Below, one piece after another: positions 20,711 to 33,334 of a stretch of 64,000 bases of DNA. The first letter of the stretch is position 1. Every line of letters begins with the position of its first letter. The stretch is from Candidatus Binatia bacterium (lineage in GTDB: Bacteria > Desulfobacterota > Binatia > Bin18). Location: positions 384,001 through 448,000 of the forward strand of contig OY761159.2 in NCBI GenBank assembly GCA_963664395.2. The letters are read 5' to 3'. The translations under genes were made by a program, and so were the position numbers. Under the pieces are notes generated by a model. The model had not been told where the DNA came from, made no database searches, and saw only the letters and a program-made list of their open reading frames with translations.

Positions 20711-22111
20711 CTAGCGCGCCGGTCTGCATTTCCAATAGTAGTTGTGCATAGTCGGCCCCTCCTTCATGCGTCTGAGGGTCAGGACAACTGCATCACCAAT
20801 ACGCACGTCTTCCGGGTCAACATCGGTCATCTGTAAATAGAGACGGCCGCCCCGGTCGACGTCGACCACGCTCATAATGGTCGGAGAGTCGGGAGCCACA
20901 TAGAGATGATCGCGGGTAAAGGTAAAAACCTGGCCGGTGTGTGCGAGCGGGACTTCCTGGAGTGAGTCGTGATTCTTACACACACTGCATACCCGTGTGA
21001 GTGGATATTGGCGCGTCCCACAACTCAGACACAGCGTTCCGTGCAAACGGACATTTTGGCTCTCTTCTTTTTCTAAGAGCACATTGGACAGTTCGGCGGC
21101 CTCTTGATGCTCGCCATAGTAGGAACGCATTTTTCGGAAAATCTGGTAAGAGGCATACAGTCGCCTTTCACTAATGTGGTCCGAGAGCGACGACTGAAGT
21201 GGACGTTTGCGAATCTCCTCGGTTACACGCAATAAGACACCATCCGCCCCATCTCCATAGTTGAGCAGGAGGAGCAACTCGCCCGGACGCGCAACTTCCA
21301 ATGCCTTCGCGAGCAAGAGGAAAGGAGCGGCACTGCCAGTTGCTCCCATATCCACAAAGAACGGATCGAGAATCTGCGGCTCCTGAAAGCCGAGTTGCTT
21401 GGCCGCCGCGCTATGGGCCCGGCCATCTGGAGAGGGGCATATCACTGTGGCCACATGCCGGGCCTGCAGCCCGTGCTTTTCGAGCAGGGTCCTGCCGACT
21501 GTGACTAGGCTTTTTTGATAGCCGCGCTCAGTCGAAAAGCGAGACGCCTGGGTCTGGATGAAATCATCTCCATCGCGGCGCCATTCATCCCAAAAGTTGC
21601 TGGAGCAGGTTGCCAGCCCCAAAATTTCAGCCAGCACATTTTCCCGCCCGATGGTGACAGCGCTGCCGGCGTCACCAAACCATTCTTCTTCACTTTCTCC
21701 CGGCTGTCCGTCGCGCACCTCGCCCGTTGCGATCAAGATGTTGGACAGACGACGGCTATTGAGCGCGTCTACACCCGCTCGTAAGGCGGCAGTGGCTGAG
21801 CGTAAGCTGCCACCAAAGTCCGACGTCTCGCAGGCTGCCGACAGGTCGCAGGCTGCCGCCAGAAAGCTGGCGGTCGAACGTTGCCAAAAAGGGGCGGACG
21901 TTGAGGCAAAGAAGAGGGCGTCAACGTCTTTCTTATCGCGGTATTCCAAACAGCGCTGGGCCGCCTCAAATCCGAGGGTGAGGGCGTCTTCATCAAAATA
22001 GATTGCGGCCCGTTCGCCTTTCCCAGGACGACGGTCCCAGGCTTGACCAAAGTGCGCCCGCTCCAGGCGACAGAAGGGCACATGATAGCCGCAGCTTGTA
22101 ATGCCGATCAT
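20711..22111 (-). CDS. HMG-CoA synthase-like domain fused to Zn-ribbon/OB-fold (DUF35)
   Basis: DEDALTL, FFASTSAP, GDAGSA, YGDGADG; C-terminal CLSC...CSVC and OB-fold ending YYWK; start MIGITSCG. Confidence 0.85.
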   Translation of the reverse strand: MIGITSCGYHVPFCRLERAHFGQAWDRRPGKGERAAIYFDEDALTLGFEAAQRCLEYRDKKDVDALFFASTSAPFWQRSTASFLAAACDLSAACETSDFGGSLRSATAALRAGVDALNSRRLSNILIATGEVRDGQPGESEEEWFGDAGSAVTIGRENVLAEILGLATCSSNFWDEWRRDGDDFIQTQASRFSTERGYQKSLVTVGRTLLEKHGLQARHVATVICPSPDGRAHSAAAKQLGFQEPQILDPFFVDMGATGSAAPFLLLAKALEVARPGELLLLLNYGDGADGVLLRVTEEIRKRPLQSSLSDHISERRLYASYQIFRKMRSYYGEHQEAAELSNVLLEKEESQNVRLHGTLCLSCGTRQYPLTRVCSVCKNHDSLQEVPLAHTGQVFTFTRDHLYVAPDSPTIMSVVDVDRGGRLYLQMTDVDPEDVRIGDAVVLTLRRMKEGPTMHNYYWKCRPAR

Positions 22112-22139
22112 AGTATTTCCCGGCGTTTCCTGGCGTTTC

Positions 22140-23030
22140 CTATGCAATCCCGGCTTGTTTCGCCCGGTCCAGGATGGTCCGTGCCCGCGTGAGATGGGGC
22201 GCATCGACCATCTGGCCCTTGAAGCTAAACGCCATTTTTCCAGCTTTTTGATTTTCTTCAAAGGCCGCCAGGAGCTCGTGGCTTTCAGCGATTTCTTCCG
22301 CTGAAGGAGTGAACACGGCGTTCACGGTTTCGATCTGGTTGGGATGGATGGTTATTTTGCCAGTGAAGCCCATCCACGCTCCTTCGACACATTCCCGGCG
22401 GAGCCCTTCGCTATCGCGGATATCGACAAACACAGTATCCAGCGGCTGGACTCCCGCTGCGGTTGCCGCCAGGAGCGTCATGATTCGAGCATAGCGGAAC
22501 ACTTCGAGAAATGTGCCGTCTTCACCCCGGTTACGGCGGGCGCCAATGGCGGCAGACAAATCCTCAGCCCCCCACGACAGGGCATCGATTCTCGGACATG
22601 AGCCAAAATCTTTGATGTTCAGTAGTCCCTCAGGCGTCTCTGTTGCCAAAACGACCAGCTTGACCTCACCCGGCGGATAGCCGCACTCCTTTTCCATACG
22701 GCTGAGAGTCGTATCGATCTTGAGCAGGTCATCACGCGTTTTGACCTTAGGGACAAGGTAGGAGTCCGGCCGGCCTTGCATCGTGACTTCAAGATCAGTC
22801 ACCCCCCAGGGTGTATCCAGAGGATTCATCCGGACCATGCGTTCTTGCCGACCAAAGTCCACGTTCTTGAGCCAGTCTGTCACTGTCTCCCGAGCAGAGT
22901 CTTTATTCTCTGGAGTGACCGCATCTTCGAGGTCCAGCACAAGCGAGTCAGCTTCCAGCGCAAGCGACTTGTGCAGCATCTTTTCATTGGCTCCGGGCAC
23001 GAAATGGACGGCACGACGTAAGCGGGTCAT
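22140..23030 (-). CDS. HpcH/HpaI aldolase / citrate lyase beta-like CoA-ester lyase
   Basis: FVPG, LDLEDAV, VRMN, ETPEG, WGAEDL, GFTGKITIHPNQ, MVDAPH. Confidence 0.92.
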   Translation of the reverse strand: MTRLRRAVHFVPGANEKMLHKSLALEADSLVLDLEDAVTPENKDSARETVTDWLKNVDFGRQERMVRMNPLDTPWGVTDLEVTMQGRPDSYLVPKVKTRDDLLKIDTTLSRMEKECGYPPGEVKLVVLATETPEGLLNIKDFGSCPRIDALSWGAEDLSAAIGARRNRGEDGTFLEVFRYARIMTLLAATAAGVQPLDTVFVDIRDSEGLRRECVEGAWMGFTGKITIHPNQIETVNAVFTPSAEEIAESHELLAAFEENQKAGKMAFSFKGQMVDAPHLTRARTILDRAKQAGIA

Positions 23031-23075
23031 GGGAAGTCTCCGGTGGGTGGCTTAGTGCTCTTTCTATCCGAAAGC

Positions 23076-23537
23076 CTACGAAATTTGGGCTTCTTTCTTG
23101 CGCATCATGGCGCCCCGGCGGCAGCTCATCACAATTTCGCCCCGCTGGTTCTTGGCCCGGTGCTCGAAGGTCACAATCCCCCACTGCGGACGGGAGCGCG
23201 ATTCTCGCTTTTCGACGACTTCGGACTCGGCATACAACGTGTCCCCAATAAAAACAGGCTTGGGGAAGACTACTTTTTCAAAACCCAGGTTTCCGACAGT
23301 TGTCCCCAGGGTGGTATCGCCGACAGACAAGCCCACTGCCAGCCCCAAGGTGAAGATACTATTCACCAAGCGTTGGCCAAACTCGGCCTTTTTTGAGAAC
23401 TCTTCATCCAGATGGAGCGGCTGGGGGTTGTGGGTCATAGTCGAGAACAACAGGTTATCCGTCTCGGTAATGGTTCGTCCGGGTTGATGTTGAAATACGT
23501 CACCAACATTCAATTCTTCAAAGTGTTTTCCGGCCAT
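23076..23537 (-). CDS. MaoC family dehydratase
   Basis: [34 protein letters not shown]. Confidence 0.9.
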
Positions 23538-23675
23538 ACGGTCCTCCTTACAGAGCAGTCCTTTCAAGCAAAGGGGCGTGTGGACGTTTGCTTACCACGT
23601 CCGCTGAAGTCGTGCCAGCGAGGGAGGTGCAAAATTGAGCAGGGCGGTAATAACGGCCCTCCGCACCAGAACACC

Positions 23676-24866
23676 TTATCTCGCTCGGTCGGCCTGATAC
23701 CAAATCCGCCCATCTTTGACTGTAAGATAGGCAACGAGTTTTTTCTCGCCGACCATATGGTTCTGGTCGGTATCGACAAAATCAAATGCGCCCTGTTCAA
23801 GACTGAGCACGGCGACATCGGCAATGGCACCGGGTCTGAGCGTTCCGAGTTGCTCAGCCTCTCCAATCACGCGGGCGGGATTGGTGGTGACGCAGCGGAT
23901 CACGTCTTCCAGGCCCATGCCCAGGTTTAAGAGCTTGGACATGGTCGTCGGCAGATCGAAGACCGGTCCTTTCGTCGCACTGGGGAGCGTCAGATCGGTC
24001 GCGATCGTGTCAGGCAAGAATCCCGCATCTAACGCCTGCTGCACAAATGGAAACGGAAAGTGCATGCGACCGTGCGCGCAGTCAAAAATAATACCCTCTT
24101 TTTGCGCGGCCCAGACTTCTTTGAGAATGGCCTTCTTTTCCGGGCCCATGATGCCGTATTCAAAACCGTGGAAGCAGTGGGTCACGACATCGCCCGGCTT
24201 GAGAAATTCCAGAATTTGAGGAACCGGCAGCAGCGCGTCTGTGATATGCACCATCAGTGGAACATTGGCCATATCCGCGGCTTGGCGCGCAAGACGCAGC
24301 GGCTCAGTTCCGGCAGAGTCAGGCACGACGTTGTTGCTAAAGCGGAGCTTAACGCCAATGGCAAGGTCACGATTATTGATGATCGTCCGGGCACAGCCCT
24401 CCGGGTCGGCATAATCCATATGCATTAACTCACCAACTTGGAGGTGCATCAGACCCAAGGCTGACAGATGGATAAAACAGCGCAACCGGACTTCACTATT
24501 GTTCGCCACATACTGACGTAATCCAGGGAAGGTGGCGGAACCAGAGCTGCCTGCGTCGATTATCGTTGTCACGCCACTCGCAGCACAGCGGCTATCGGTT
24601 TCAGTGCCCATATCGTGGGCATTTATAAACGTATGCGCGTGAATGTCGATCAGCCCAGGGCAGACAATCTTGCCTGATACGTCACGGACTCGGGCCGCTT
24701 GTGTCGCAGGAATGTCCACCGCAACAGTTGCTATTTTGCCGTTGCGGATCGCAACGTCGGCTTTTTGCGGCTTTTGATACTCAGACCAGCCAGGGTCAAT
24801 GACCTCGCCGCCTTTTATGAGGAGATCGTATTGCACTTTACGTTCTACTGCGTGAGACTGCGGCAT
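23676..24866 (-). CDS. Amidohydrolase/deacetylase family metallohydrolase (dihydroorotase-like)
   Basis: PGLIDIHAH, GVTTIIDAGS, GVKLR, LMVH, THCFHG, TDL; start MPQSH. Confidence 0.88.
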   Translation of the reverse strand: MPQSHAVERKVQYDLLIKGGEVIDPGWSEYQKPQKADVAIRNGKIATVAVDIPATQAARVRDVSGKIVCPGLIDIHAHTFINAHDMGTETDSRCAASGVTTIIDAGSSGSATFPGLRQYVANNSEVRLRCFIHLSALGLMHLQVGELMHMDYADPEGCARTIINNRDLAIGVKLRFSNNVVPDSAGTEPLRLARQAADMANVPLMVHITDALLPVPQILEFLKPGDVVTHCFHGFEYGIMGPEKKAILKEVWAAQKEGIIFDCAHGRMHFPFPFVQQALDAGFLPDTIATDLTLPSATKGPVFDLPTTMSKLLNLGMGLEDVIRCVTTNPARVIGEAEQLGTLRPGAIADVAVLSLEQGAFDFVDTDQNHMVGEKKLVAYLTVKDGRIWYQADRAR

Positions 24867-24918
24867 GAATGTCTCCTGTTCTTCCGGCCTGACACCGGAC
24901 TTGGACAGACGTGCGGTA

Positions 24919-27054
24919 CTACTCGATTGCCCGTCCCACTTTTCCTTCAAGCTCTTTGAGGAACTCGTTCCATTTTTCCCCCATGTTTGCTCTAAGCTTA
25001 TTGAATAAATCTTGCCGTTCCTCGGTGTTGAGCCAGTTATCCGTGTACCGAGCAATATCGACCTTGTAACCCTTTCCTCCACCCCAACGCTCTTGACAAT
25101 TGCCCCAGAGCTTAGAGTCTTCACGGAGTGGTTCTTCAAAGATGGCCTCACTTATTAGCTCTGCTTGCTTTTGCAATTGGCCGGAGCTTTCGGCGATGTA
25201 GTCTCGTAATTCGTCGACAAATGCTCGTGCCGGCTGCATATCTTCACCCTGCTTCAAATTGTCCAAGAGTGCGGTCAACATCTTAAGTTTCGGTTCGCTG
25301 GCGGCTACAAATATGGCCCTCACACCATAGGCGAGCACATCGTAGAAGTTCAAGTTGTACCAACTGCCTCTCCTATTGATAGATGCCCGTACACTAGAAG
25401 CGTAAGTGCTTTGGGCAACGATCGACTCCCGAAGAGATTCGGGAACTTGTTCAAGCTCGAATTCCAAGGATTTATTGTCCTGAATCCAGGTCTGAATCCT
25501 TTTTCCGATGTGTTTGTAGCAGGCTGATTCTTGATGCTTTTCAAGATTTTTTTCCAACTCCTTGACTTGACCTACAATGCCCTCAATCTTCTTGATGTGG
25601 TCTGCGCGCATGCGGTCAAGTCCCCCTTCGACGCTTTTGGAGAAAATCGATGGAGAATCCTCTTTTTGATTGAAAAACGTGATTTGTATATCCTTTAGCT
25701 GTAGCTCTTGGGCTAGGGCGACCTCAATATCAGCCCGTCTTACCTGTCGGCCGTCATCTCCATTGGCCACCCTAGAGCCATCGAAATCATTGACGCTCTC
25801 AGCCTCTTCTGAGCGATCTAGTACTACCAACTGTGCTTCGGTCAATAATCGCTCGCGTAGACCGCCCACCACGGCGTGCTTCAACACAGACCGTGACGTT
25901 TCATCAGGTGCGTCAAGAAAGCGTGAGCAAATGATGCAGAGTGCTCTGGGGTCATCAAAGAGCGCGGAGATATCCGACCGCGGAGCAAATTGATCCACTC
26001 CTTTAGTGTCTATGACCGATATATTGAGAGGCACTTCCCCATTAAGGACCATCTGCGGCACGATCACGTTTATTCGTTTGGGGACTGAGAATGACGGATT
26101 ACGGCCATGGTTGATTTTGGTGAATTCACCTTTGAGCCAATGTAAGGGGTCCTTCTCTCCAGAATTACTGTGCCAAAGTTCCCTATGAGTACGAACTCGC
26201 AAGTTCATGCGCTCAAGCATCTGTAGCTTGAATTTTTCCTTGTCTGTACTCGAACGCGCGAGGTTGATGGCCTCATCGATGACTTTCCGTGTAGCTGGAT
26301 CTCGCCTTTGGGCGAGGCCTGCCATGTTTCGGAGGCAGCGAGTTAATTCGGTGTTGAGGTTGGGAATGCTGTCACTAGGGCCGGAGTCGTTCACCCCACC
26401 ATCAGAAGCCATAGTCGCACGGGACAGGGTGTATTCGCAAAATTCGTCAATACAAACATCAATCTCCTCGTCATCACGCGGCTCGACGATCAATCCCCAA
26501 CTTGGTCCCTTGTTGATGACAACTTCACAGATCGTTGTCCGTCCACCGCCGTAGTCAAGGACTGGCTTGCCATCCAAAAGGAGGTGGGTCGCTGCACAAA
26601 TCGCGGTGGTCTTGCCTACCCCAATACTTCCGATAAATCCAACGGTATGATCGAGACTGAGGAGATATTTTACTGCGTTACGGAGCGAATTTCCGTAGAG
26701 GTCAATCTCGTCACGAATGAAGTCCGCCTCTGGAATATTCTCATTCTCAATCAATTTCTTAATGCGATGGAGCCCGTCGTTTGCCATCATGAGCGAATTC
26801 AAATTGGGGTGATCCAGGGGCGGTGTCGCTGCGAAGGCAACAGTGTCCCATTCGGATTCCAAGTATGCGCAGATTTTTTTCGCATAGGGCGAATCGACTT
26901 CCTCAAGATACCGATAAACCTCTTCAGCCGGTAGCTCTGGAGAGCTTTCCATGCGCGATATAGCGACCTGCGAAAGACCGAGTCGCTGCCCGACTTCGCG
27001 CTGAGACATTCGTTTCTGCTCCCGTTCTCCCGCCATCAGCTTTCCCAAGTGCAT
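24919..27054 (-). CDS. XRE-type HTH fused to a dynamin-like (TRAFAC) P-loop GTPase, 711 aa
   Basis: N-terminal MSQREVGQRLGLSQVAISRMES HTH; G1 GSIGVGKT, G2 GRTT, G3 DTKG, possible G4 NQKE; long helical C-terminus; GGGGGA RBS 12 nt after the upstream stop. Confidence 0.75.
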   Translation of the reverse strand: MHLGKLMAGEREQKRMSQREVGQRLGLSQVAISRMESSPELPAEEVYRYLEEVDSPYAKKICAYLESEWDTVAFAATPPLDHPNLNSLMMANDGLHRIKKLIENENIPEADFIRDEIDLYGNSLRNAVKYLLSLDHTVGFIGSIGVGKTTAICAATHLLLDGKPVLDYGGGRTTICEVVINKGPSWGLIVEPRDDEEIDVCIDEFCEYTLSRATMASDGGVNDSGPSDSIPNLNTELTRCLRNMAGLAQRRDPATRKVIDEAINLARSSTDKEKFKLQMLERMNLRVRTHRELWHSNSGEKDPLHWLKGEFTKINHGRNPSFSVPKRINVIVPQMVLNGEVPLNISVIDTKGVDQFAPRSDISALFDDPRALCIICSRFLDAPDETSRSVLKHAVVGGLRERLLTEAQLVVLDRSEEAESVNDFDGSRVANGDDGRQVRRADIEVALAQELQLKDIQITFFNQKEDSPSIFSKSVEGGLDRMRADHIKKIEGIVGQVKELEKNLEKHQESACYKHIGKRIQTWIQDNKSLEFELEQVPESLRESIVAQSTYASSVRASINRRGSWYNLNFYDVLAYGVRAIFVAASEPKLKMLTALLDNLKQGEDMQPARAFVDELRDYIAESSGQLQKQAELISEAIFEEPLREDSKLWGNCQERWGGGKGYKVDIARYTDNWLNTEERQDLFNKLRANMGEKWNEFLKELEGKVGRAIE

Positions 27055-27066
27055 TGTTGTTCCCCC

Positions 27067-27339
27067 CTAACGGCGATTAATCTTCCGTGTTCGCCGGCCG
27101 ATCGTGACGACCGCACCGTCAGACGATTCTATAAAATACAGAGGATCGGGTTTCTCGAAGTCGTGTTGCATAGCCTTCAGCGCCTCCAGGATTCGTCTGC
27201 GCTGTTGCCTGTTCGCTATCCAGACCTTTGCACTGCCTGGAGCTCTTTCAAATTGTCCGAAGTGTTTGATTAATTCGAGGGATAGCAATTGGCAGCCACG
27301 CTCTCTTGCCCGTAATTTCGCATGTCTAGTTAGTCGCAT
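27067..27339 (-). CDS. Small basic DUF4258-like protein (putative RelE/BrnT-fold toxin)
   Basis: Family-typical N-terminus LTRHAKLRARERG and C-terminal DGAVVTI; GAGGAG RBS. Confidence 0.6.
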   Translation of the reverse strand: MRLTRHAKLRARERGCQLLSLELIKHFGQFERAPGSAKVWIANRQQRRRILEALKAMQHDFEKPDPLYFIESSDGAVVTIGRRTRKINRR

Positions 27340-27530
27340 TGCACATCTCCTCTCGCCCTTGTTGATGAATACAATCTCAACTATTAGCTAATTTAGGAGT
27401 TTTTATCAAGAATTAAATCTATAAATTTTCTCTTTTTAGTCGAATATATTCGCAATAAAAACTTCAACCTGATCGAATTGGGCAAATAATTGGGTTTACT
27501 TTTTAGGTAAACTCCGGTAAATACCCACTG
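27340..27530. promoter_or_regulatory. AT-rich divergent promoter region with inverted repeats
   Basis: CGAATATATTCG palindrome 27441-27452; GTTTAC-N7-GTAAAC 27494-27512; AGTTTTTAT/ATAAAAACT at 27398/27455. Confidence 0.5.
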
Positions 27531-28868
27531 ATGGATTCTCAAAAAAAACAGCAAATTCCATCGGTACCGGAAGGTCATTTAGCGTTCGGGCAACGTCTAC
27601 GTGAGCAGCGTCAGGAAAAAGGGCTCTTGCTCTCTGATCTGGCAAAGGTGCTTGAAGTCACAAAAGGGTATCTTTCTCGCCTGGAGCGAGGGAAAGCAAA
27701 ACCCTCAAAAACCATTATTGGGTTGATAGCGCACGCGCTGAGTATTGATCCAGGCCCTCTGAAGGTTCTTGCAGGGGACTTCCCTGGTGATGTGAGGCAG
27801 ATTCTCTATCATCATCCCGAAGACGCCCCCACTCTCCTTCGAGAGATATTTGGAGAGTATGGTTCTCACGGTACCTCTCGTAAATCCGATGCTACAAGGA
27901 AAACAATTCCTCAAAAGAAACACGGCATAAAGCCATTTCAAAAAGAGCGCTATGAACTCATTCAGGCCAACTGTCTTGAATGGCTGGAACACCGTGCCTC
28001 CAATAGTATCCATGCTGTCGTCACTGATCCGCCCTACGGCTTAAAAGAATACACACCCGAGGAAAAGAAAAAACTCCGGCGCGGGCGTGGTGGCGTCTGG
28101 CGCATACCACCAACACTTGATGGATATACCCGCAGTCCGATTCCTCGCTTCACTGTGCTGACTCATGAAGATAAGAATTCTTTAAAGAAATTCTTTACGC
28201 AGTGGGCAACAAGAATTCAGCGAGTTCTCGTCCCTGGCGGACATACATTCATTGCTACCAACCCCCTTCTCTCCCACCTCGTTTATACTGCGTTGGAAGA
28301 GGCAGGCTTCGAGAAAAGAGGGGAGATTATCCGTCTCGTACAGACTCTCCGAGGTGGTGATCGGCCAAAGAATGCCCATAAAGAATTTGAGAACGTCACC
28401 GTCATGCCTCGCTCCTGTTGGGAACCTTGGGGGCTATTTAGAAAGCCCTGTCGAGGTCGAGTGCAGGATAATCTTCGTGAATGGCAGACAGGCGGCTTGC
28501 GGCGTGTCTCGGAAGAGCAGCCTTTTGGAGATGTTATCAAAAGCGCTCCAACCAGAGGGATAGAGCGAGAAATCGCTCCTCATCCATCCTTGAAACCGCA
28601 GGCTTTCATGCAGCAGATTGTTCGCGCCTCCCTTCCCTTAGGAGAAGGGATTATCCTTGATCCTTTTATGGGTGGAGGGTCTACGATAGCAGCAGCCTGC
28701 GCGGTAGGTTATCGCAGTATTGGGGTCGAAATAGACCGGGAGTATTACAAAATGGCCGTTCGGGCGATACCAAAGCTTGCAACCCTTGTCCTCGATAACG
28801 GAAATGGAAAAGTTCCCCCGTACCTCTCCCGTGGGCAAGTAGAACAGAAACCTCCCCTATTTTCATAA
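27531..28868 (+). CDS. Beta-class N4C/N6A DNA methyltransferase with N-terminal XRE HTH
   Basis: GQRLREQRQEKGL...YLSRLERG HTH; VTDPPY before HPSLKP and LDPFMGGGST. Confidence 0.9.
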   Translation: MDSQKKQQIPSVPEGHLAFGQRLREQRQEKGLLLSDLAKVLEVTKGYLSRLERGKAKPSKTIIGLIAHALSIDPGPLKVLAGDFPGDVRQILYHHPEDAPTLLREIFGEYGSHGTSRKSDATRKTIPQKKHGIKPFQKERYELIQANCLEWLEHRASNSIHAVVTDPPYGLKEYTPEEKKKLRRGRGGVWRIPPTLDGYTRSPIPRFTVLTHEDKNSLKKFFTQWATRIQRVLVPGGHTFIATNPLLSHLVYTALEEAGFEKRGEIIRLVQTLRGGDRPKNAHKEFENVTVMPRSCWEPWGLFRKPCRGRVQDNLREWQTGGLRRVSEEQPFGDVIKSAPTRGIEREIAPHPSLKPQAFMQQIVRASLPLGEGIILDPFMGGGSTIAAACAVGYRSIGVEIDREYYKMAVRAIPKLATLVLDNGNGKVPPYLSRGQVEQKPPLFS

Positions 28869-28883
28869 TCCGTCTTAGCCAGT

Positions 28884-29537
28884 TCACAAGAGTCCGGGAC
28901 CGTCCGCAAGAATCGAACGATGCTTCCCCACCCCAGTTCCAGGGCTTCGATATATAAAGTTATTTCGGAGTTTCTCTACACCATCTGTTGTAATTGAGGC
29001 GGTCGGAGTCCGCCGTGATTCCCCTTTACGTCCAGAGAAAGACCAGTCGTCTTTTGTCAGTTCGGCACAGAGGATTTCGACAAAAGTAAAAGGAACAATT
29101 TCTCCACTCTTCTGCTTTCCGACAACGTACCTAAAAACCATTAACCAACACTCTTCTGGATTGTGTCCTTGCCAACCACCTTTCTGGATAGAGCATTTGA
29201 CCTCAATCCCCTGGTCTCCCTTCAAGACAGCATTCGACGCATAAGAAGCTTTCGGGAGAAGGTCAGGATGCCCACCCACCTTCGTATTTGCTTCAAGCAC
29301 TGAAGAGGATTTAGCAATGTTCTTGACTAAGAATTCGGAGATGATCCCCGATAGGGAGTTGCCGAGGAGCAACTCTTCTAGGGGTCGAAATCCATTCTGC
29401 CTGAGATAATCGTTAAGACCATGGGAAAGACGATAAGTTTCCGCAACTGATTTCTCAACTTCTTCTACTGTAAACCCATAGGGGAGAATAGCGCGTCTGT
29501 TCACGTAGCCCTTATCAAGGACTCCTGGCAACTCCAC
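28884..29537 (-). CDS. Putative type II restriction endonuclease (PD-(D/E)XK)
   Basis: GHPDLL...IEVK catalytic motif with upstream SE; convergent with the MTase, 15-bp gap. Confidence 0.72.
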   Translation of the reverse strand: MELPGVLDKGYVNRRAILPYGFTVEEVEKSVAETYRLSHGLNDYLRQNGFRPLEELLLGNSLSGIISEFLVKNIAKSSSVLEANTKVGGHPDLLPKASYASNAVLKGDQGIEVKCSIQKGGWQGHNPEECWLMVFRYVVGKQKSGEIVPFTFVEILCAELTKDDWSFSGRKGESRRTPTASITTDGVEKLRNNFIYRSPGTGVGKHRSILADGPGLL

Positions 29538-29599
29538 TTCATCTTCCTTCAGTTACTTAAGTTCTTTTGCTCTTGCGAGGTAGTGCAGAGCCCATCGGC

Positions 29600-30232
29600 C
29601 TACCACGTATTCTCGTGGATCAGCTTCTCAAGCGGGATTTTCTTATTACCAGGTTTGCTCGGCTTTTCTGCGGGATAGCCGAGGGTGATGAGTCCGACCG
29701 GGCGGACGTGGTTGGGCAGTTGCAATATCCTGGTGACTTCTTCCGGGTTGTACGAGCCGACAAAACAGGCTCCCAGCCCTTGCTCAGTCGCGCCTAACAA
29801 AATCAGCAATGAGGCAAACGCAGTATCCACCAAACTGTAAAAAGCCCCGCGCGTACCGTATTTCTCGCCCATACGCTGGATATCGGCACAGGTGGCAATG
29901 ATAAGCGGCGCGGTGGCAACCGAGTTCTGACTCATCGCCGCCTTCGCCAGTTCGGCCCGGACCTCGGGGTCGCGCACCAGAATAAACTCCCACGGCTGGA
30001 GATTGCCCGCGCTAGGTGCGCGCACTGCGTAGCGCAGCAGTTTTTTGATCTCTTCTTCAGGGATCGGCCTGTCCTCGTACTTGCGGATCATGCGCCGGCG
30101 TTTCACGACCGCAGCGAAGCTGGCGGTATCGCCGTTTTCAACGGCGTGAGCCAGACTGTACGCCTGGCCGAGGAGGGCGGCGGTGCCGACTCCCTGAAGT
30201 ATATGCCGACGGGTAAGTGTTGTCCGAGACAT
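29600..30232 (-). CDS. Nitroreductase family protein with Tat-like signal peptide
   Basis: TRRHILQ twin-arginine; RRMIRKY, APSAGNLQPWEF, GLGACF, LGYP. Confidence 0.88.
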   Translation of the reverse strand: MSRTTLTRRHILQGVGTAALLGQAYSLAHAVENGDTASFAAVVKRRRMIRKYEDRPIPEEEIKKLLRYAVRAPSAGNLQPWEFILVRDPEVRAELAKAAMSQNSVATAPLIIATCADIQRMGEKYGTRGAFYSLVDTAFASLLILLGATEQGLGACFVGSYNPEEVTRILQLPNHVRPVGLITLGYPAEKPSKPGNKKIPLEKLIHENTW

Positions 30233-30240
30233 GTAGCGCG

Positions 30241-31344
30241 CTAACGATTCACAAATCGCAACACGCTCACTCCTCCGGTCTGCGAATGGCCCAGGGGGAC
30301 CTTGGTAATCAGGTCCAGGGATTCGGCGTCGTAGACCGCGACATCGTGCCAGTTGCTGCCGCAGTAGACCTTCTTGCCTTCGGGGTGAATGAGCGGCGCG
30401 AAATAGGTATTGGACAGGGGTATTTTTTTCTCAATGTGGCGTGTTTTGGGATCAACCTTCCACAAATTATTGTATGCAAAATATGCCTTGTTCGTATGCC
30501 GCGAGAGCGCACCAGTGATCACATAGTCACCCTCGACAAAGGGTTGGAGTTCAACAATTTTCAGTTCCGGGTCTTCCTGGGTGAGGTCAAGCGAGCCGAT
30601 GCCCAGCGTCGTCTGATTGGTAATGGAATCTTGGGTAAACGTACCAAAAGAGACAAGATGGCCACTTTCCTGATAGGTTCCGCCAAGCGGCAGGCCGTCG
30701 GTTCTCGTAATGCCACTGATGTTACGATTGGCAAGGGGAATGGTATCGAGCAGTGTTCCGTCTTCCGTACTATGCACAAAAATATCTTGCCCGACACTGA
30801 ACAAATAGAGGCGCTTTCCATCCTTTGAAGACGCAAGCCCCATCACCTGGCGGGGAGCAGGAAACGTTGTCGCCGTCTCATTGGTCTCCAGGTTGATGAC
30901 CCGTATCCGATTTTCTTGGGCAGTGTAGCGACCCAGGTCTTGCTTGATTGGCATTTCGTGCACGAACAGGCGGGTGCCTTGCGTATTCACATCGATCGCC
31001 ATGGTTCGCACGAGTTCATTGTCGTTCGACAAGTCAAAGCTCTTGACCTGCTTGCCCTCGTCCAGGTCAACCATGGCCACGCTTCTGGCCAGATTGTTCA
31101 CCACATAGGCAAACTGTGGCTGAGCAGGATTGGGCGCAATATACAGGGCCGGCCCTCGACCATTGAGGGCAATATCTTTGACGACCGTATCCGTTTCCGT
31201 ATCGACAATAACCAGATTATTCGGATGAGTGCTGGCCAAGAGATACCACTTTGCCCAGGCCGTCTGCGGAACGACCCCAAACAAGAAGAGAACACCCCAC
31301 ACAAGCTGCCTGTGTTTTGCGTGCACCACCCGCTCCTTCAGCAC
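30241..31344 (-). CDS. qhpB: Quinohemoprotein amine dehydrogenase beta subunit (beta-propeller)
   Basis: Signal peptide, HPNNLVIVD, FPAPRQV propeller repeats; directly downstream of qhpC. Confidence 0.82.
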   Translation of the reverse strand: MLKERVVHAKHRQLVWGVLFLFGVVPQTAWAKWYLLASTHPNNLVIVDTETDTVVKDIALNGRGPALYIAPNPAQPQFAYVVNNLARSVAMVDLDEGKQVKSFDLSNDNELVRTMAIDVNTQGTRLFVHEMPIKQDLGRYTAQENRIRVINLETNETATTFPAPRQVMGLASSKDGKRLYLFSVGQDIFVHSTEDGTLLDTIPLANRNISGITRTDGLPLGGTYQESGHLVSFGTFTQDSITNQTTLGIGSLDLTQEDPELKIVELQPFVEGDYVITGALSRHTNKAYFAYNNLWKVDPKTRHIEKKIPLSNTYFAPLIHPEGKKVYCGSNWHDVAVYDAESLDLITKVPLGHSQTGGVSVLRFVNR

Positions 31345-31375
31345 GATGCGTTAAGATACTTTTTCTGAGCCGGAC

Positions 31376-31717
31376 TTATTCGATTTTGGGAAAGACAACG
31401 TCCAGGTTGCGCCAGTCTTCCTGATTCATACCTGAGCAGCCTTTGGCCCACTCGGGCGAGTTCTGGAGGCTGTCCGGCACCTGAGCTGGCCACCAGCACA
31501 GATTCGAACAGCTCAGCAGGTCGGCTTCCATGGGGGCACACATGCTGCTTGCCCCGCCCCACGAATTCGCCTCCCAGCCTGGATTAAAGATGGTCGTGCA
31601 GCCAACAGGTTGCGCCATACCCACGACATCTTCCTCTACCTCTTTTTTGGTCGCGGATTTTTCCACAACGGCGGTGACGGCCACTGCTTTGCGATTCGCT
31701 GCTTTGAGGTGTTTCAT
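31376..31717 (-). CDS. qhpC: Quinohemoprotein amine dehydrogenase gamma subunit precursor (CTQ, Cys-Asp/Glu thioethers)
   Basis: MKHLK leader; GC..PGWE, C.PMEADL..C...CWWPAQVPD, DWRNL signature. Confidence 0.95.
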   Translation of the reverse strand: MKHLKAANRKAVAVTAVVEKSATKKEVEEDVVGMAQPVGCTTIFNPGWEANSWGGASSMCAPMEADLLSCSNLCWWPAQVPDSLQNSPEWAKGCSGMNQEDWRNLDVVFPKIE

Positions 31718-31735
31718 GCTCTGCTCCCCATGCCT

Positions 31736-32225
31736 TCAGGTCAGTTCTTTTGGTGCGTCTCCGCGTCCACGTAACACATAGTGCTCAATAAACCCAGGGT
31801 TTTGCTCTTGCAGCTGCATATACACGCCAATGCCATACTCCGTCCATTCCCGCAGGAAGTCGCAGTAGTGCAGGTTCGGCAAGCTCGCATCTCCAAACTC
31901 GGTCATGGCTTCATGATAACAGCCGCCGCCACACAGGCCACGGATCCAGCACGTTTGACATACCGGCTTATTGCCCAGGTGGGCACTGTTGATAAATGTA
32001 TTCAGACGGTCGTATTCAATGCCGTCTTTCACATTGCCGTATTTGTGCTCCTCGGTGCCGGGGAAACGGTGACATAAATACACATCGCCATTGCCATCAA
32101 CATCCAAGAGCCCCAAGCCAGCGCCACACGGAAAGAATTTGTTTGTTCCCAGGTGGATGTCAGTCAGCAAGGTACTCAAATTCGAGAAACCCGTGTATTG
32201 GTTGTTCAGCGCGCGCGCGACGTAG
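31736..32225 (-). pseudogene. qhpD: 3' fragment of QHNDH maturation radical SAM protein (SPASM domain only)
   Basis: GFSN, CGAG, LCHRF, CQTCWIRGLCGGGCYHE, HYC; CxxxCxxC core missing; homology appears to stop near 32225. Confidence 0.8.
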
Positions 32226-33334
32226 ACCCCGTCCGGCCCGATGGAGAGCATAGCGTGACCATCCGCTATGGTTCAGGAGAACGCATTCTGGCCGCGTTCT
32301 GCGTTGATGCGACCGGCCACGCTGGTATATACGCCCGACAGAACCTGCGCCAGCGGGACAGCGTCTTTCAAACGCTTGCCTTGACCGGCTATTGGCAAAA
32401 CGCGGCCAATCCACCTGGCGTAGACAGCGCCAACACCCTGCTTGAAGCCTATTCCGACGGCATGGTCTGGTCCGTCCCGCTGCATACCGGCCTGCGGAAT
32501 GTCACGCTGCTGATTGACTGGCAACAAAGCCTCGCCATGAAGCGGAGAGGCGTGCAACAGTTTTATAGGGAAGAACTCCGCAAAGCGGCGTATGTCTCGG
32601 GCTTTCTGGCTGAGGCGCACCTGCCCCACCCACCCCAGGTCTTTGATGCCAGCCTGTATACCGCGCGGCAGTTTGTCGCCGGCCGCACCCTCCTTGTCGG
32701 TGACGCCGGCCTGTTCATTGATCCCTTGTCCTCAGAAGGAGTCCGCAAAGCCATGGCATCCGCCATTACGGGCGCCGTGGTTATCAATACCCTACTCCAG
32801 CGACCCGCCATGCGGCCCCATGCCGCTGCGCTGTACGAAGCCGGTCAGCGAGATACCTATGATAGCCACTATCAGCAGTCGGTTCGCTATTACGCGGAAG
32901 AGGGCCGCTGGCCGGACCGACCCTTTTGGCAGCGCCGTCGCCTGCGCCCTGAGCCCGACGCGGTTCCCGCCGCTCCGCAGCCGCCGTCCACTGCCTTTTC
33001 TCCATTTGACTCACAGCCGGTCTCACACCTGGCGCTAACATCTGACGCGATTATCCAAGAACGGCCCGTTATTGAGGGCTCTTATGTTGAGCTCCGGCCT
33101 GCCGTTGTCACCCCGCGTCACCCGCGGGGTCTGCGCTTTCTGTCTGGGGTGAACGTCCCGACCCTGCTGCACTGTGTTCAGAAACACCGCGCTGTGCCTG
33201 ACATTCTGGAGGCGTATCAGCGTCATCCTGACGGGCAGCAGAGCCTTCCGCCCCAAATCCGTCAGGTCCTGGCCCAGCTGTATCAAGAGGGCCTGCTTAG
33301 ACCGACATCGCCAGACGAAAGCCAATCAGATTGA
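32212..33334 (+). pseudogene. qhpG: 3' part of FAD-dependent halogenase-like monooxygenase (QhpG-like) with C-terminal winged-helix domain
   Basis: VDATG, WSVPL, VGDAGLFIDPLSSEGV; N-terminal GxGxxG absent; next to qhp genes. Confidence 0.7.

Follow-up and report, generated by a model that had tools for sequence, protein, structure and literature searches.

Can a dynamin-like protein take the place of an antitoxin? The question is raised by two adjacent genes in a 64,000-nucleotide stretch of a Candidatus Binatia bacterium genome (contig OY761159.2, positions 384,001 to 448,000; this whole stretch is called the window below). The first encodes a 90-residue, very basic protein and the second a 711-residue protein in which an XRE-type helix-turn-helix (HTH) head precedes a P-loop NTPase. 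An original prediction, made from the letters of the window, had seen here a DUF4258-like toxin followed by an HTH antitoxin fused to a dynamin-like GTPase. We tentatively read the pair as a two-gene mobile module of the toxin-antitoxin (TA) or abortive-infection type, in which an RNase toxin of the BECR fold would be controlled by the HTH-dynamin-like protein, and we give this reading somewhat less than an even chance.

A 2.4-kb mobile unit

Both open reading frames (ORFs), the 12 nt between them and the quoted translations were recovered as originally described, the small protein agreeing with the string LTRHAKLRARERG...DGAVVTI, and Shine-Dalgarno-like purine runs precede the ATG of the small and the large gene alike. 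All four loci with an intact small gene show the order small-then-large with a tight gap: the window genome (G000), a genome of a different genus (G046) and two metagenome loci (L100 and L099), the only two that the metagenome scan yielded. The G046 copy, at 73% and 80% identity, has the same 12-nt gap (L095: 10332 to 10345), and in the metagenome loci the large gene starts ~12-16 nt after the small one. A survey of homologues for a conserved pair had been proposed along with the prediction, and in the close clade the linkage is kept wherever the small gene is intact. Among 101 related genomes the large gene occurs in two, and a six-frame search returned two close copies of the small gene, that of G046 (80% identity) and a truncated one in G037, a genome syntenic with G046.

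The pair is a 2.4-kb mobile unit, conserved within its clade. DNA comparison of the window with 27 same-genus genomes finds positions 21000-24835 and 29598-32232 conserved in most of them and positions 24836-27581, exactly the pair, in none (0/27); the congeners have ~4.4 kb of native-GC genes in this slot. At least 11 same-genus genomes have the methyltransferase of the neighbouring restriction-modification (R-M) pair at this site. The endonuclease was matched in two or three (G018, G014 and part of G022) and directly adjoins the methyltransferase gene in G018 and G014; many congeners may carry an orphan methyltransferase. Since the congeners have the R-M genes and none has the pair, two things make up the low-GC island: an R-M pair resident in the genus and a 2.4-kb insertion that is recent and specific to G000. 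The AT-richer island that had been proposed is thus present as a patch (GC 0.46-0.51 in the 1-kb windows of 25001-30000, surroundings ~0.55-0.62) but is composed of two parts of different age. In G046 the pair, at GC 0.50, stands out from a genome of GC 0.65.

G037 holds a remnant of the small gene (L084:1462-1722 / L096:8619-8879), 74% identical over residues 1-69 and continuing into an unrelated C-terminus. Relative to G046, a deletion in G037 has removed the large gene and two flanking genes, and with them the 3' end of the small gene.

The small protein and the DUF4258 family

By transitive remote homology, the assignment of the small protein to a divergent branch of the DUF4258 (BECR toxin) family holds. 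Its close relatives are few (11 clusters, all at least 43% identical). A sister subfamily at 28-31% identity has members at another place in G000 and in 9 of the 27 same-genus genomes; its matches have E-values of 1.4e-5 to 3e-3 per genome, and it aligns with the small protein over the full length. The sister proteins give sub-threshold matches to PF14076 (DUF4258), at E 0.009-0.055. With a profile of the small family, 186 proteins were collected at E<=0.01; when 65 relatives were aligned, PF14076 was matched by 35 of them at E<=0.1, the best at 2.7e-7. A precomputed PF14076 annotation stands on 3 of the 120 profile matches listed. In PDB searches the single sequence returned nothing useful and the family profile chance-level matches only.

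Fifteen residues are invariant in both subfamilies (18 sequences), namely T4, H6, A7, R10, R14, L23, G28, R47, A56, Y68, G75, V77, T79, G81 and R83; among them H6, A7, R10, R14, R47, Y68 and R83 are conserved in at least 90% of the 65 small-family sequences. DUF4258 proteins have a conserved 'HA' motif near the N-terminus, to which H6 and A7 of the small protein correspond. The AlphaFold2 model built with the family alignment (pLDDT 94.3) has helices at residues 5-13, 18-27 and 44-62 and strands at 29-33, 37-41, 67-71 and 77-82, with the conserved H6, R10 and R14 on the first helix and T79, G81 and R83 in or just past the last strand. Topology and conserved-residue positions in this model are compatible with the BECR fold of DUF4258. 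The label 'DUF4258-like', first given from sequence alone, is borne out by transitive homology. The small gene is under purifying selection, with dN/dS of 0.04-0.19 in all six pairwise comparisons; together with the relatives that both proteins have, this marks the two ORFs as true genes.

With DUF4258 (PF14076, which overlaps Ntox49) the small protein shares its small size and basic character, an N-terminal T-x-H-A-x-x-R-x-x-x-R and a C-terminal V-x-T-x-G-x-R strand. The available portion of Gerdes 2025 (PMC11980606) counts DUF4258 among the BECR-fold toxin families of type II TA modules and records DUF4258-MqsA(HTH) fusions. A 2026 preprint (bioRxiv 10.64898/2026.08.28.747851), in its accessible part, assigns DUF4258 to the colicin-like branch of BECR toxins; in that branch the residues of the active site are located on the pre-alpha element and on beta4, and a conserved histidine is often one of them. 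The HTH partner is a further likeness to DUF4258, as is, in the predicted model, the placement of the conserved residues on the first helix and the last strand, where the accessible text puts those of colicin-like BECR toxins. Unlike DUF4258, the small protein has an extra long helix between beta2 and beta3, and its partner is a 711-aa NTPase fusion instead of a small antitoxin.

The sister-subfamily gene lies directly downstream of a gene for a 115-140-aa HTH-like protein, and the toxin lineage therefore pairs with HTH proteins recurrently. The window genome itself has a paralogous cassette on contig C1 near 294-295 kb (L103:1396-2855, minus strand), in which a 138-aa HTH-like gene is followed by a DUF4258-like domain fused in frame to ~250 more residues (342 aa total). 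In congeners the part that is fused in G000 is a separate downstream gene. BrnT-like and BrnA-like ORFs adjoin the L103 cassette.

A divergent, soluble dynamin-like protein

From profile comparison and predicted structure we conclude that the large protein is soluble and belongs, as a divergent member, to the bacterial dynamin-like lineage (BDLP/mitofusin type). Two profiles of its family were compared by hhalign with alignments of Dynamin_N, SRP54 and MMR_HSR1 proteins from related genomes. Against Dynamin_N (22 sequences) the probabilities were 95.6% (E 1.1e-8, 157 columns) and 97.0% (E 9e-11, 446 columns), with G1, G2 and G3 spanned and the full profile reaching the stalk. The SRP54 control (29 sequences) gave 74% and 61% over 34 and 20 columns, and the MMR_HSR1 (Era-type) control (25 sequences) 50% and 33%, both covering the P-loop only. 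When PDB was searched with a profile of the NTPase family, FtsY (E 0.0016, P-loop region) and FlhF (E 0.011) were matched along with mitofusin-2 (MFN2, 6jfk; E 0.024), the only PDB match that covers both G1 and G2 (GxGxTT switch).

The SRP/FlhF-like P-loop that the FtsY and FlhF matches suggested was ruled out, as hhalign against SRP54 covers 20-34 columns only. Another candidate, SrfC (PF10139), offered as an Atlas lead at 0.89, was not comparable: the family matched neither G000 nor any control genome. All Atlas leads for a homologue of the large protein were below 0.9; in some of the clusters among them, Dynamin_N is found on 12-21% of members.

The likeness to BDLP/mitofusin-type proteins extends over G1, an 'L-x-T-G-x-x-x-T' switch I and the DxxG strand into the stalk, and it includes the predicted order of N-terminal helices, G domain and C-terminal helical bundle. 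In the AlphaFold2 model (mean pLDDT 88.7, pTM 0.87) the G domain sits between helical bundles, helices 85-132 preceding it and long helices 468-710 following it. The motifs read earlier from the letters are all present, as GSIGVGKT (P-loop, residues 142-149), GGGRTT (169-174, holding the RTT) and DTKG (349-352), and G142, V146, G147, K148, T149, G169, G171, T174, D349, T350 and G352 are invariant in a 37-sequence family alignment. The long helical tail was likewise correctly foreseen, residues 468-710 being nearly all helix in the model; W650, G658, G660, Y663 and W695 are conserved in it. A conserved insert of ~110 residues (~200-310), which BDLP-type proteins lack, lies within the G domain between the beta2-beta3 hairpin and the G3 strand and carries the motifs E-x-x-R-x-L-R-N-M-A-G-L and I-N-x-G-R.

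The predicted N-terminal XRE HTH was confirmed by Pfam HTH_3 on residues 3-50 (E 2e-5; 25.0 bits, cut-off 23) and by PDB matches of the HTH family profile: 2ef8 (1e-7), C.BclI (2e-6), HipB (4e-6), HigA (3.9e-5) and 3clc (0.0015). By these profile matches the head most closely resembles HipB/HigA antitoxins and R-M controller proteins. Beyond the HTH, Pfam, NCBIfam, PHROGs and PADLOC recognise nothing in the large protein (PADLOC HTH_VI, E 0.0092), and a PDB search with the single sequence gave nothing useful.

Pfam Dynamin_N (PF00350) does not match the large protein, and in a search of the whole genome it matches two other places instead. A canonical HTH-dynamin is encoded elsewhere in G000, on contig C1 near 2.08 Mb (L097:157-2424, minus strand; 755 aa, P0392), with an N-terminal XRE HTH, Dynamin_N at E 3.1e-13 and a long Gly/Ala/Leu-rich hydrophobic paddle. 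G027 (L118) has a protein whose head is 67% identical to that of the L097 HTH-dynamin, and an HTH is found on 2 of 22 Dynamin_N ORFs from relatives.

Relatives of the NTPase outside the clade

The family of the large protein is widespread. A word-indexed search returned 120 relatives at E<=0.001, and an exhaustive one 829 representatives at E<=0.001, 537 at 1e-10 and 214 at 1e-30. In contigs from one genome per species, 153 stretches encode a relative; the best 80 of these 153 were kept and span Planctomycetota, Acidobacteriota, Cyanobacteriota, Chloroflexota, Pseudomonadota, Myxococcota and others. Everywhere the family is annotated only as 'HTH transcriptional regulator', and some relatives have no HTH head. 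In one, an N-terminal Ser/Thr kinase (Pkinase, E 7.8e-40) replaces the HTH, and another has a C-terminal CobT-type VWA domain (E 2.4e-57; proteins P0114 and P0118). Such exchangeable head domains are as expected of a modular signalling core.

Seventy-nine loci with relatives at 35% identity or less made up the distant set. Short ORFs upstream of these relatives (n=45) look like low-complexity artefacts, and ORFs of ~195 aa that overlap the relatives' stop codon in four loci have no Pfam match. The neighbours were scanned with PADLOC and Pfam as a descriptive sample with no control set (128 of 256 selected ORFs, from 35 of the 72 loci kept after 7 near-duplicates were dropped). Matched by PADLOC in at least two ORFs were type I and IIG R-M, AriA/PtuA/GajA-like ATPases, HEC-02A, mads and AbiLi, and PIN proteins are also among the 128 chromosomal-neighbour ORFs.

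Further relatives lie on 19 plasmid records, annotated only as transcriptional regulator. At five of six plasmid loci inspected, R-M, HNH nuclease, TA or AAA-helicase genes lie within 5 kb; some of the plasmids are conjugative or small, with the relative near partition and replication genes. On two sphingomonad plasmids (L102:5358-7265 and L194:7183-9087), a gene with a DUF262 domain (GmrSD-like nuclease family) follows 20-29 nt past the stop of the HTH-NTPase gene, and this DUF262 gene may be an alternative effector partner of the NTPase homologue.

Proposed mechanism and its difficulties

On the TA or abortive-infection reading, the promoter-proximal gene would encode a toxin of RNase type and BECR fold, small and very basic, that stems from a divergent branch of DUF4258, and the second gene its controller, an acidic 80-kDa protein made of an XRE HTH, a soluble divergent dynamin-like NTPase and a helical stalk. 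The HTH head would repress the operon promoter and the large protein would keep the toxin inactive. Infection or some other insult would then trigger a nucleotide-dependent dimerisation or rearrangement of the dynamin-like domain, which would free the toxin or permit its expression, and the freed toxin would cleave RNA and arrest the cell. The analysis shows the gene pair with its tight linkage and joint mobility, the remote homology of each protein, and the conservation of the P-loop, switch-I-like and DxxG motifs; toxicity and RNase activity of the small protein, its physical binding by the large one, autorepression, the trigger and a role in phage defence are inferred.

A number of results weigh against this reading. 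The small protein has no match in Pfam (E<=0.1; it falls below every Pfam threshold), NCBIfam or PADLOC and only one in PHROGs, at E 0.32, and its DUF4258 link is transitive because the window protein itself matches no family model. The DUF4258 family is said to 'remain undescribed in the literature' in the available portion of PMC11980606, which names no member with demonstrated activity; the modules tabulated there are antitoxin-first, whereas the window has the toxin first. The controller is ~8x larger than an ordinary antitoxin and does not answer to the description of a small, labile, dedicated one. No operator palindrome common to the upstream regions of the four pair loci was found.

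Other difficulties concern the dynamin-like protein itself. Unlike BDLP-type proteins, it is missed by the Dynamin_N model and has neither a G4 motif nor a hydrophobic membrane paddle. The (N/T)KxD of G4 is absent: opposite it the window protein has LVVL-DRSEE and the family consensus LVLxRxxEA. The top 19-residue Kyte-Doolittle mean is 1.35. Lacking NKxD and paddle, the protein may differ from dynamins in the nucleotide used and in mode of action. Of the term 'dynamin-like GTPase', 'dynamin-like' has therefore survived, through hhalign with its controls and the predicted architecture, and 'GTPase' lacks support, NKxD and paddle being absent.

The distant relatives speak on the same side. None of the 79 distant loci has the small partner near the NTPase (BLAST none at E<=1e-3 in the ORFs of 80 loci, best HMM E 1.1), and clustering of the neighbours gave no family common to more than 7 loci. 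The original prediction had itself listed GTPase homologues without the small gene as counting against it, and such homologues are what all 79 loci hold. The NTPase being solo there, it has a function that needs no toxin. With the family otherwise solo, the most fitting view of the toxin is that one clade of an already existing HTH-dynamin-like sensor or regulator acquired it as an effector. Housekeeping genes such as PEPCK, GroEL and GlyS are also among the neighbours, and defence enrichment is not demonstrated by a descriptive scan without a control set. In 50,697 phage records no relative of the NTPase was found, which is of little weight either way. In G000 the pair lies beside R-M genes. 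The G046 pair, the only other complete copy, has SDR, luciferase-like and SnoaL genes on its flanks and no R-M close by; it sits among metabolic genes and in no defence island.

Competing explanations

The best-surviving alternative, which we consider rather unlikely, is a loose coupling in which the HTH-dynamin-like protein is an autonomous single-gene element, serving defence or plasmid biology as in the rest of its family, and the small gene an ordinary addiction toxin that uses only the HTH head, as its repressor or antitoxin, with the NTPase uninvolved in toxin control. The solo occurrence of the NTPase in 79 of 79 distant loci fits this well, as do the 19 plasmid copies annotated only as transcriptional regulator and the fact that HipB/HigA-like HTH heads suffice as antitoxin modules elsewhere. 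Yet the 12-nt coupling is kept and the 2.4-kb unit moves whole in two genera; the residues of the P-loop, GGGRTT and DTKG are invariant in an alignment with five close-clade relatives (59-78% identity), and a 711-aa partner would be costly to retain if the HTH alone sufficed.

Less probable still is plain post-segregational addiction, the module serving to stabilise the inserted DNA and playing no part in phage defence. TA modules classically stabilise mobile DNA, and the unit is indeed small and mobile, sits among metabolic genes in G046 and has relatives on conjugative and small plasmids near partition or replication genes. Such a module, however, has no need of a large NTPase with a helical stalk. 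The relatives are often next to R-M, DUF262, HNH or AAA-helicase genes, and the G000 insertion lies immediately next to an R-M pair.

To an explanation that does without toxicity we would give an equally low standing: the small protein would be a non-toxic, basic, nucleic-acid-binding cofactor or adaptor of the dynamin-like protein, perhaps tethering it to RNA or DNA, the BECR scaffold being kept and catalysis lost. Its pI of 11.4, its Arg/Lys-rich C-terminal tail and the lack of a direct Pfam match agree with such a role, and for DUF4258 members at large the available text of PMC11980606 gives no known activity. Against it, the catalytic-type residues H6, R10, R14, R47, Y68 and R83 are conserved in both subfamilies and in at least 90% of the 65 sequences, and they sit where the accessible part of the preprint (bioRxiv 10.64898/2026.08.28.747851) locates colicin-like BECR active sites. 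The sister subfamily moreover has a TA-like pairing with a small HTH gene, beside BrnT/BrnA-like genes, and the partnerless G037 copy is truncated.

That the large HTH protein is a controller-like regulator of the adjacent R-M genes, as its resemblance to controllers (C.BclI E 2e-6, 3clc 0.0015) and the divergent placement of the pair 191 nt from the methyltransferase might suggest, is close to refuted by a methyltransferase that has its own HTH, by R-M genes without the pair at this site in at least 11 same-genus genomes and by a G046 pair without any R-M.

Gene map and surroundings of the pair

The features of the pair and its neighbours are collected in Table 1. The adjoining R-M pair of the original prediction is real (PADLOC MTase_II 2.8e-120 and REase_II 3.8e-7), the endonuclease ORF having no Pfam match; the small gene and the methyltransferase gene are divergent, with 191 nt between them. 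The promoter-like site upstream of the small gene is not significant alone, since the region has 3 such sites and shuffled sequence a mean of 4.8; promoter and terminator scans of the region were at chance level throughout. At the equivalent place L100 and L099 have TTGACA-17-TATGAT/TATTAT. The upstream region in G000 holds one palindrome, 70% complementary, and that in G046 (L095:10618-10800) a tandem duplication of ~70 nt that includes the stretch before the ribosome-binding site. On the other side of the pair, the longest ORF of an amidohydrolase gene (window 23676-25151, minus strand) begins with a GTG that lies within the large gene's 3' end; its true start is probably an internal ATG near 24863 (MPQSHAVERK...), leaving ~55 nt to the large gene.

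Table 1. Positions in the window of the two genes, the parts of the large protein and adjoining features.
Feature	Position	Strand	Basis and description
Small gene	27067..27339	-	ORF, 90 aa, ATG start; pI 11.4; divergent DUF4258/BECR-type toxin candidate
Spacer between small and large gene	27055..27066	-	12 nt; purine-rich ribosome-binding stretch for large gene
Large gene	24919..27054	-	ORF, 711 aa, ATG start; pI 5.3; divergent soluble dynamin-like P-loop NTPase with an XRE-HTH head
XRE-type HTH head, residues 1-66	26857..27054	-	Pfam HTH_3 and HTH_31, both E 2e-5; AlphaFold2 helices 3-66
Two long N-terminal helices, residues 85-132	26659..26802	-	AlphaFold2 H85-104, H113-132; align to Dynamin_N N-terminal helices (hhalign)
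NTPase (G) domain, residues 135-461	25672..26652	-	Conservation, hhalign vs Dynamin_N, AlphaFold2
C-terminal helical stalk, residues 468-710	24925..25653	-	AlphaFold2 helices 468-502, 512-526, 534-546, 570-602, 604-644, 678-710
Promoter-like site TTGATA-18-AATAGT	27380..27409	-	Upstream of small gene; consensus match only
HTH-fused type II N6/N4 DNA methyltransferase, neighbour outside module	27531..28868	+	Pfam N6_N4_Mtase 5.7e-21, HTH_3 1.5e-11; PADLOC MTase_II E 2.8e-120
Candidate type II restriction endonuclease, neighbour outside module	28884..29537	-	PADLOC REase_II E 3.8e-7; convergent on methyltransferase

Comparison with known systems

The TA or abortive-infection module that we tentatively propose resembles HigBA type II TA in having the toxin gene first, an XRE-type HTH in the antitoxin and tight bicistronic spacing, and the HTH profile of the large protein matches the HigA structures 6af3 (3.9e-5), 6lty and 7ewc. 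It differs in that the 'antitoxin', whose neutralising role is putative, has ~640 extra residues of dynamin-like NTPase and stalk, and in that the small protein is of the DUF4258 lineage and not HigB. The pair does not belong to the two-gene Leo-type dynamin-like system, which we take to be the one named Eleos (LeoABC): the PADLOC Eleos model finds no match here, and the pair joins one dynamin-like gene to a toxin-like partner in place of two dynamins. Both the anti-phage two-gene dynamin-like system (Leo homologs) and DynA appear in the available part of the Millman et al. 2022 preprint.

An NTPase is combined with a nuclease in other defence systems, PARIS AriAB being one such pair. With Septu PtuAB and ptuXYZ the pair shares a large NTPase regulator or sensor beside a nuclease or RNase effector, and DUF262 follows relatives of the NTPase on the two sphingomonad plasmids; unlike here, the NTPase there is of ABC/AAA type and without an HTH head, and there is no sequence relationship. 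The ptuXYZ locus, as proposed in the available portion of PMC11980606, comprises a DUF262 nuclease, a PtuA-like P-loop ATPase and a PIN-YoeB BECR protein.

The claim that no described system has this architecture agrees with what we found. PADLOC has no model for the small protein and only the HTH model (E 0.0092) for the large one, and our searches of full-text literature, with listed titles screened and supplementary tables lying outside them, turned up no report in which a toxin of DUF4258 type has as its partner an HTH protein fused to a dynamin-like or any other NTPase; searches with the accession numbers of plasmid homologues found no paper either.

Significance

We also speculate, on a broader and unlikely reading, that a dynamin-superfamily NTPase acts as a bacterial infection sensor and switch that gates exchangeable nuclease effectors: a BECR RNase here, DUF262 on the sphingomonad plasmids, and elsewhere alone through HTH, kinase or VWA heads. 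If true, this sensor and switch would be a prokaryotic counterpart of the dynamin-like GTPases of eukaryotic immunity (Mx/GBP), acting by effector release and not by membrane remodelling, and the large protein would be the first dynamin-like 'antitoxin'.

The module is easy to test, being 2.4 kb long and self-contained in two genomic contexts, and the pair provides a handle on the DUF4258 toxin lineage. Should the TA or abortive-infection reading be true, a large family of soluble, HTH-fused dynamin-like NTPases, which has no Pfam model for its core and occurs in many phyla and on plasmids, would receive its first function. The reading would also introduce a new principle of TA control, with an NTP-driven mechanochemical protein in place of a labile antitoxin. 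Dynamin-like proteins, tied to antiviral immunity by membrane repair (DynA) and by the two-gene Leo-type system, would then be tied to it in a further way.

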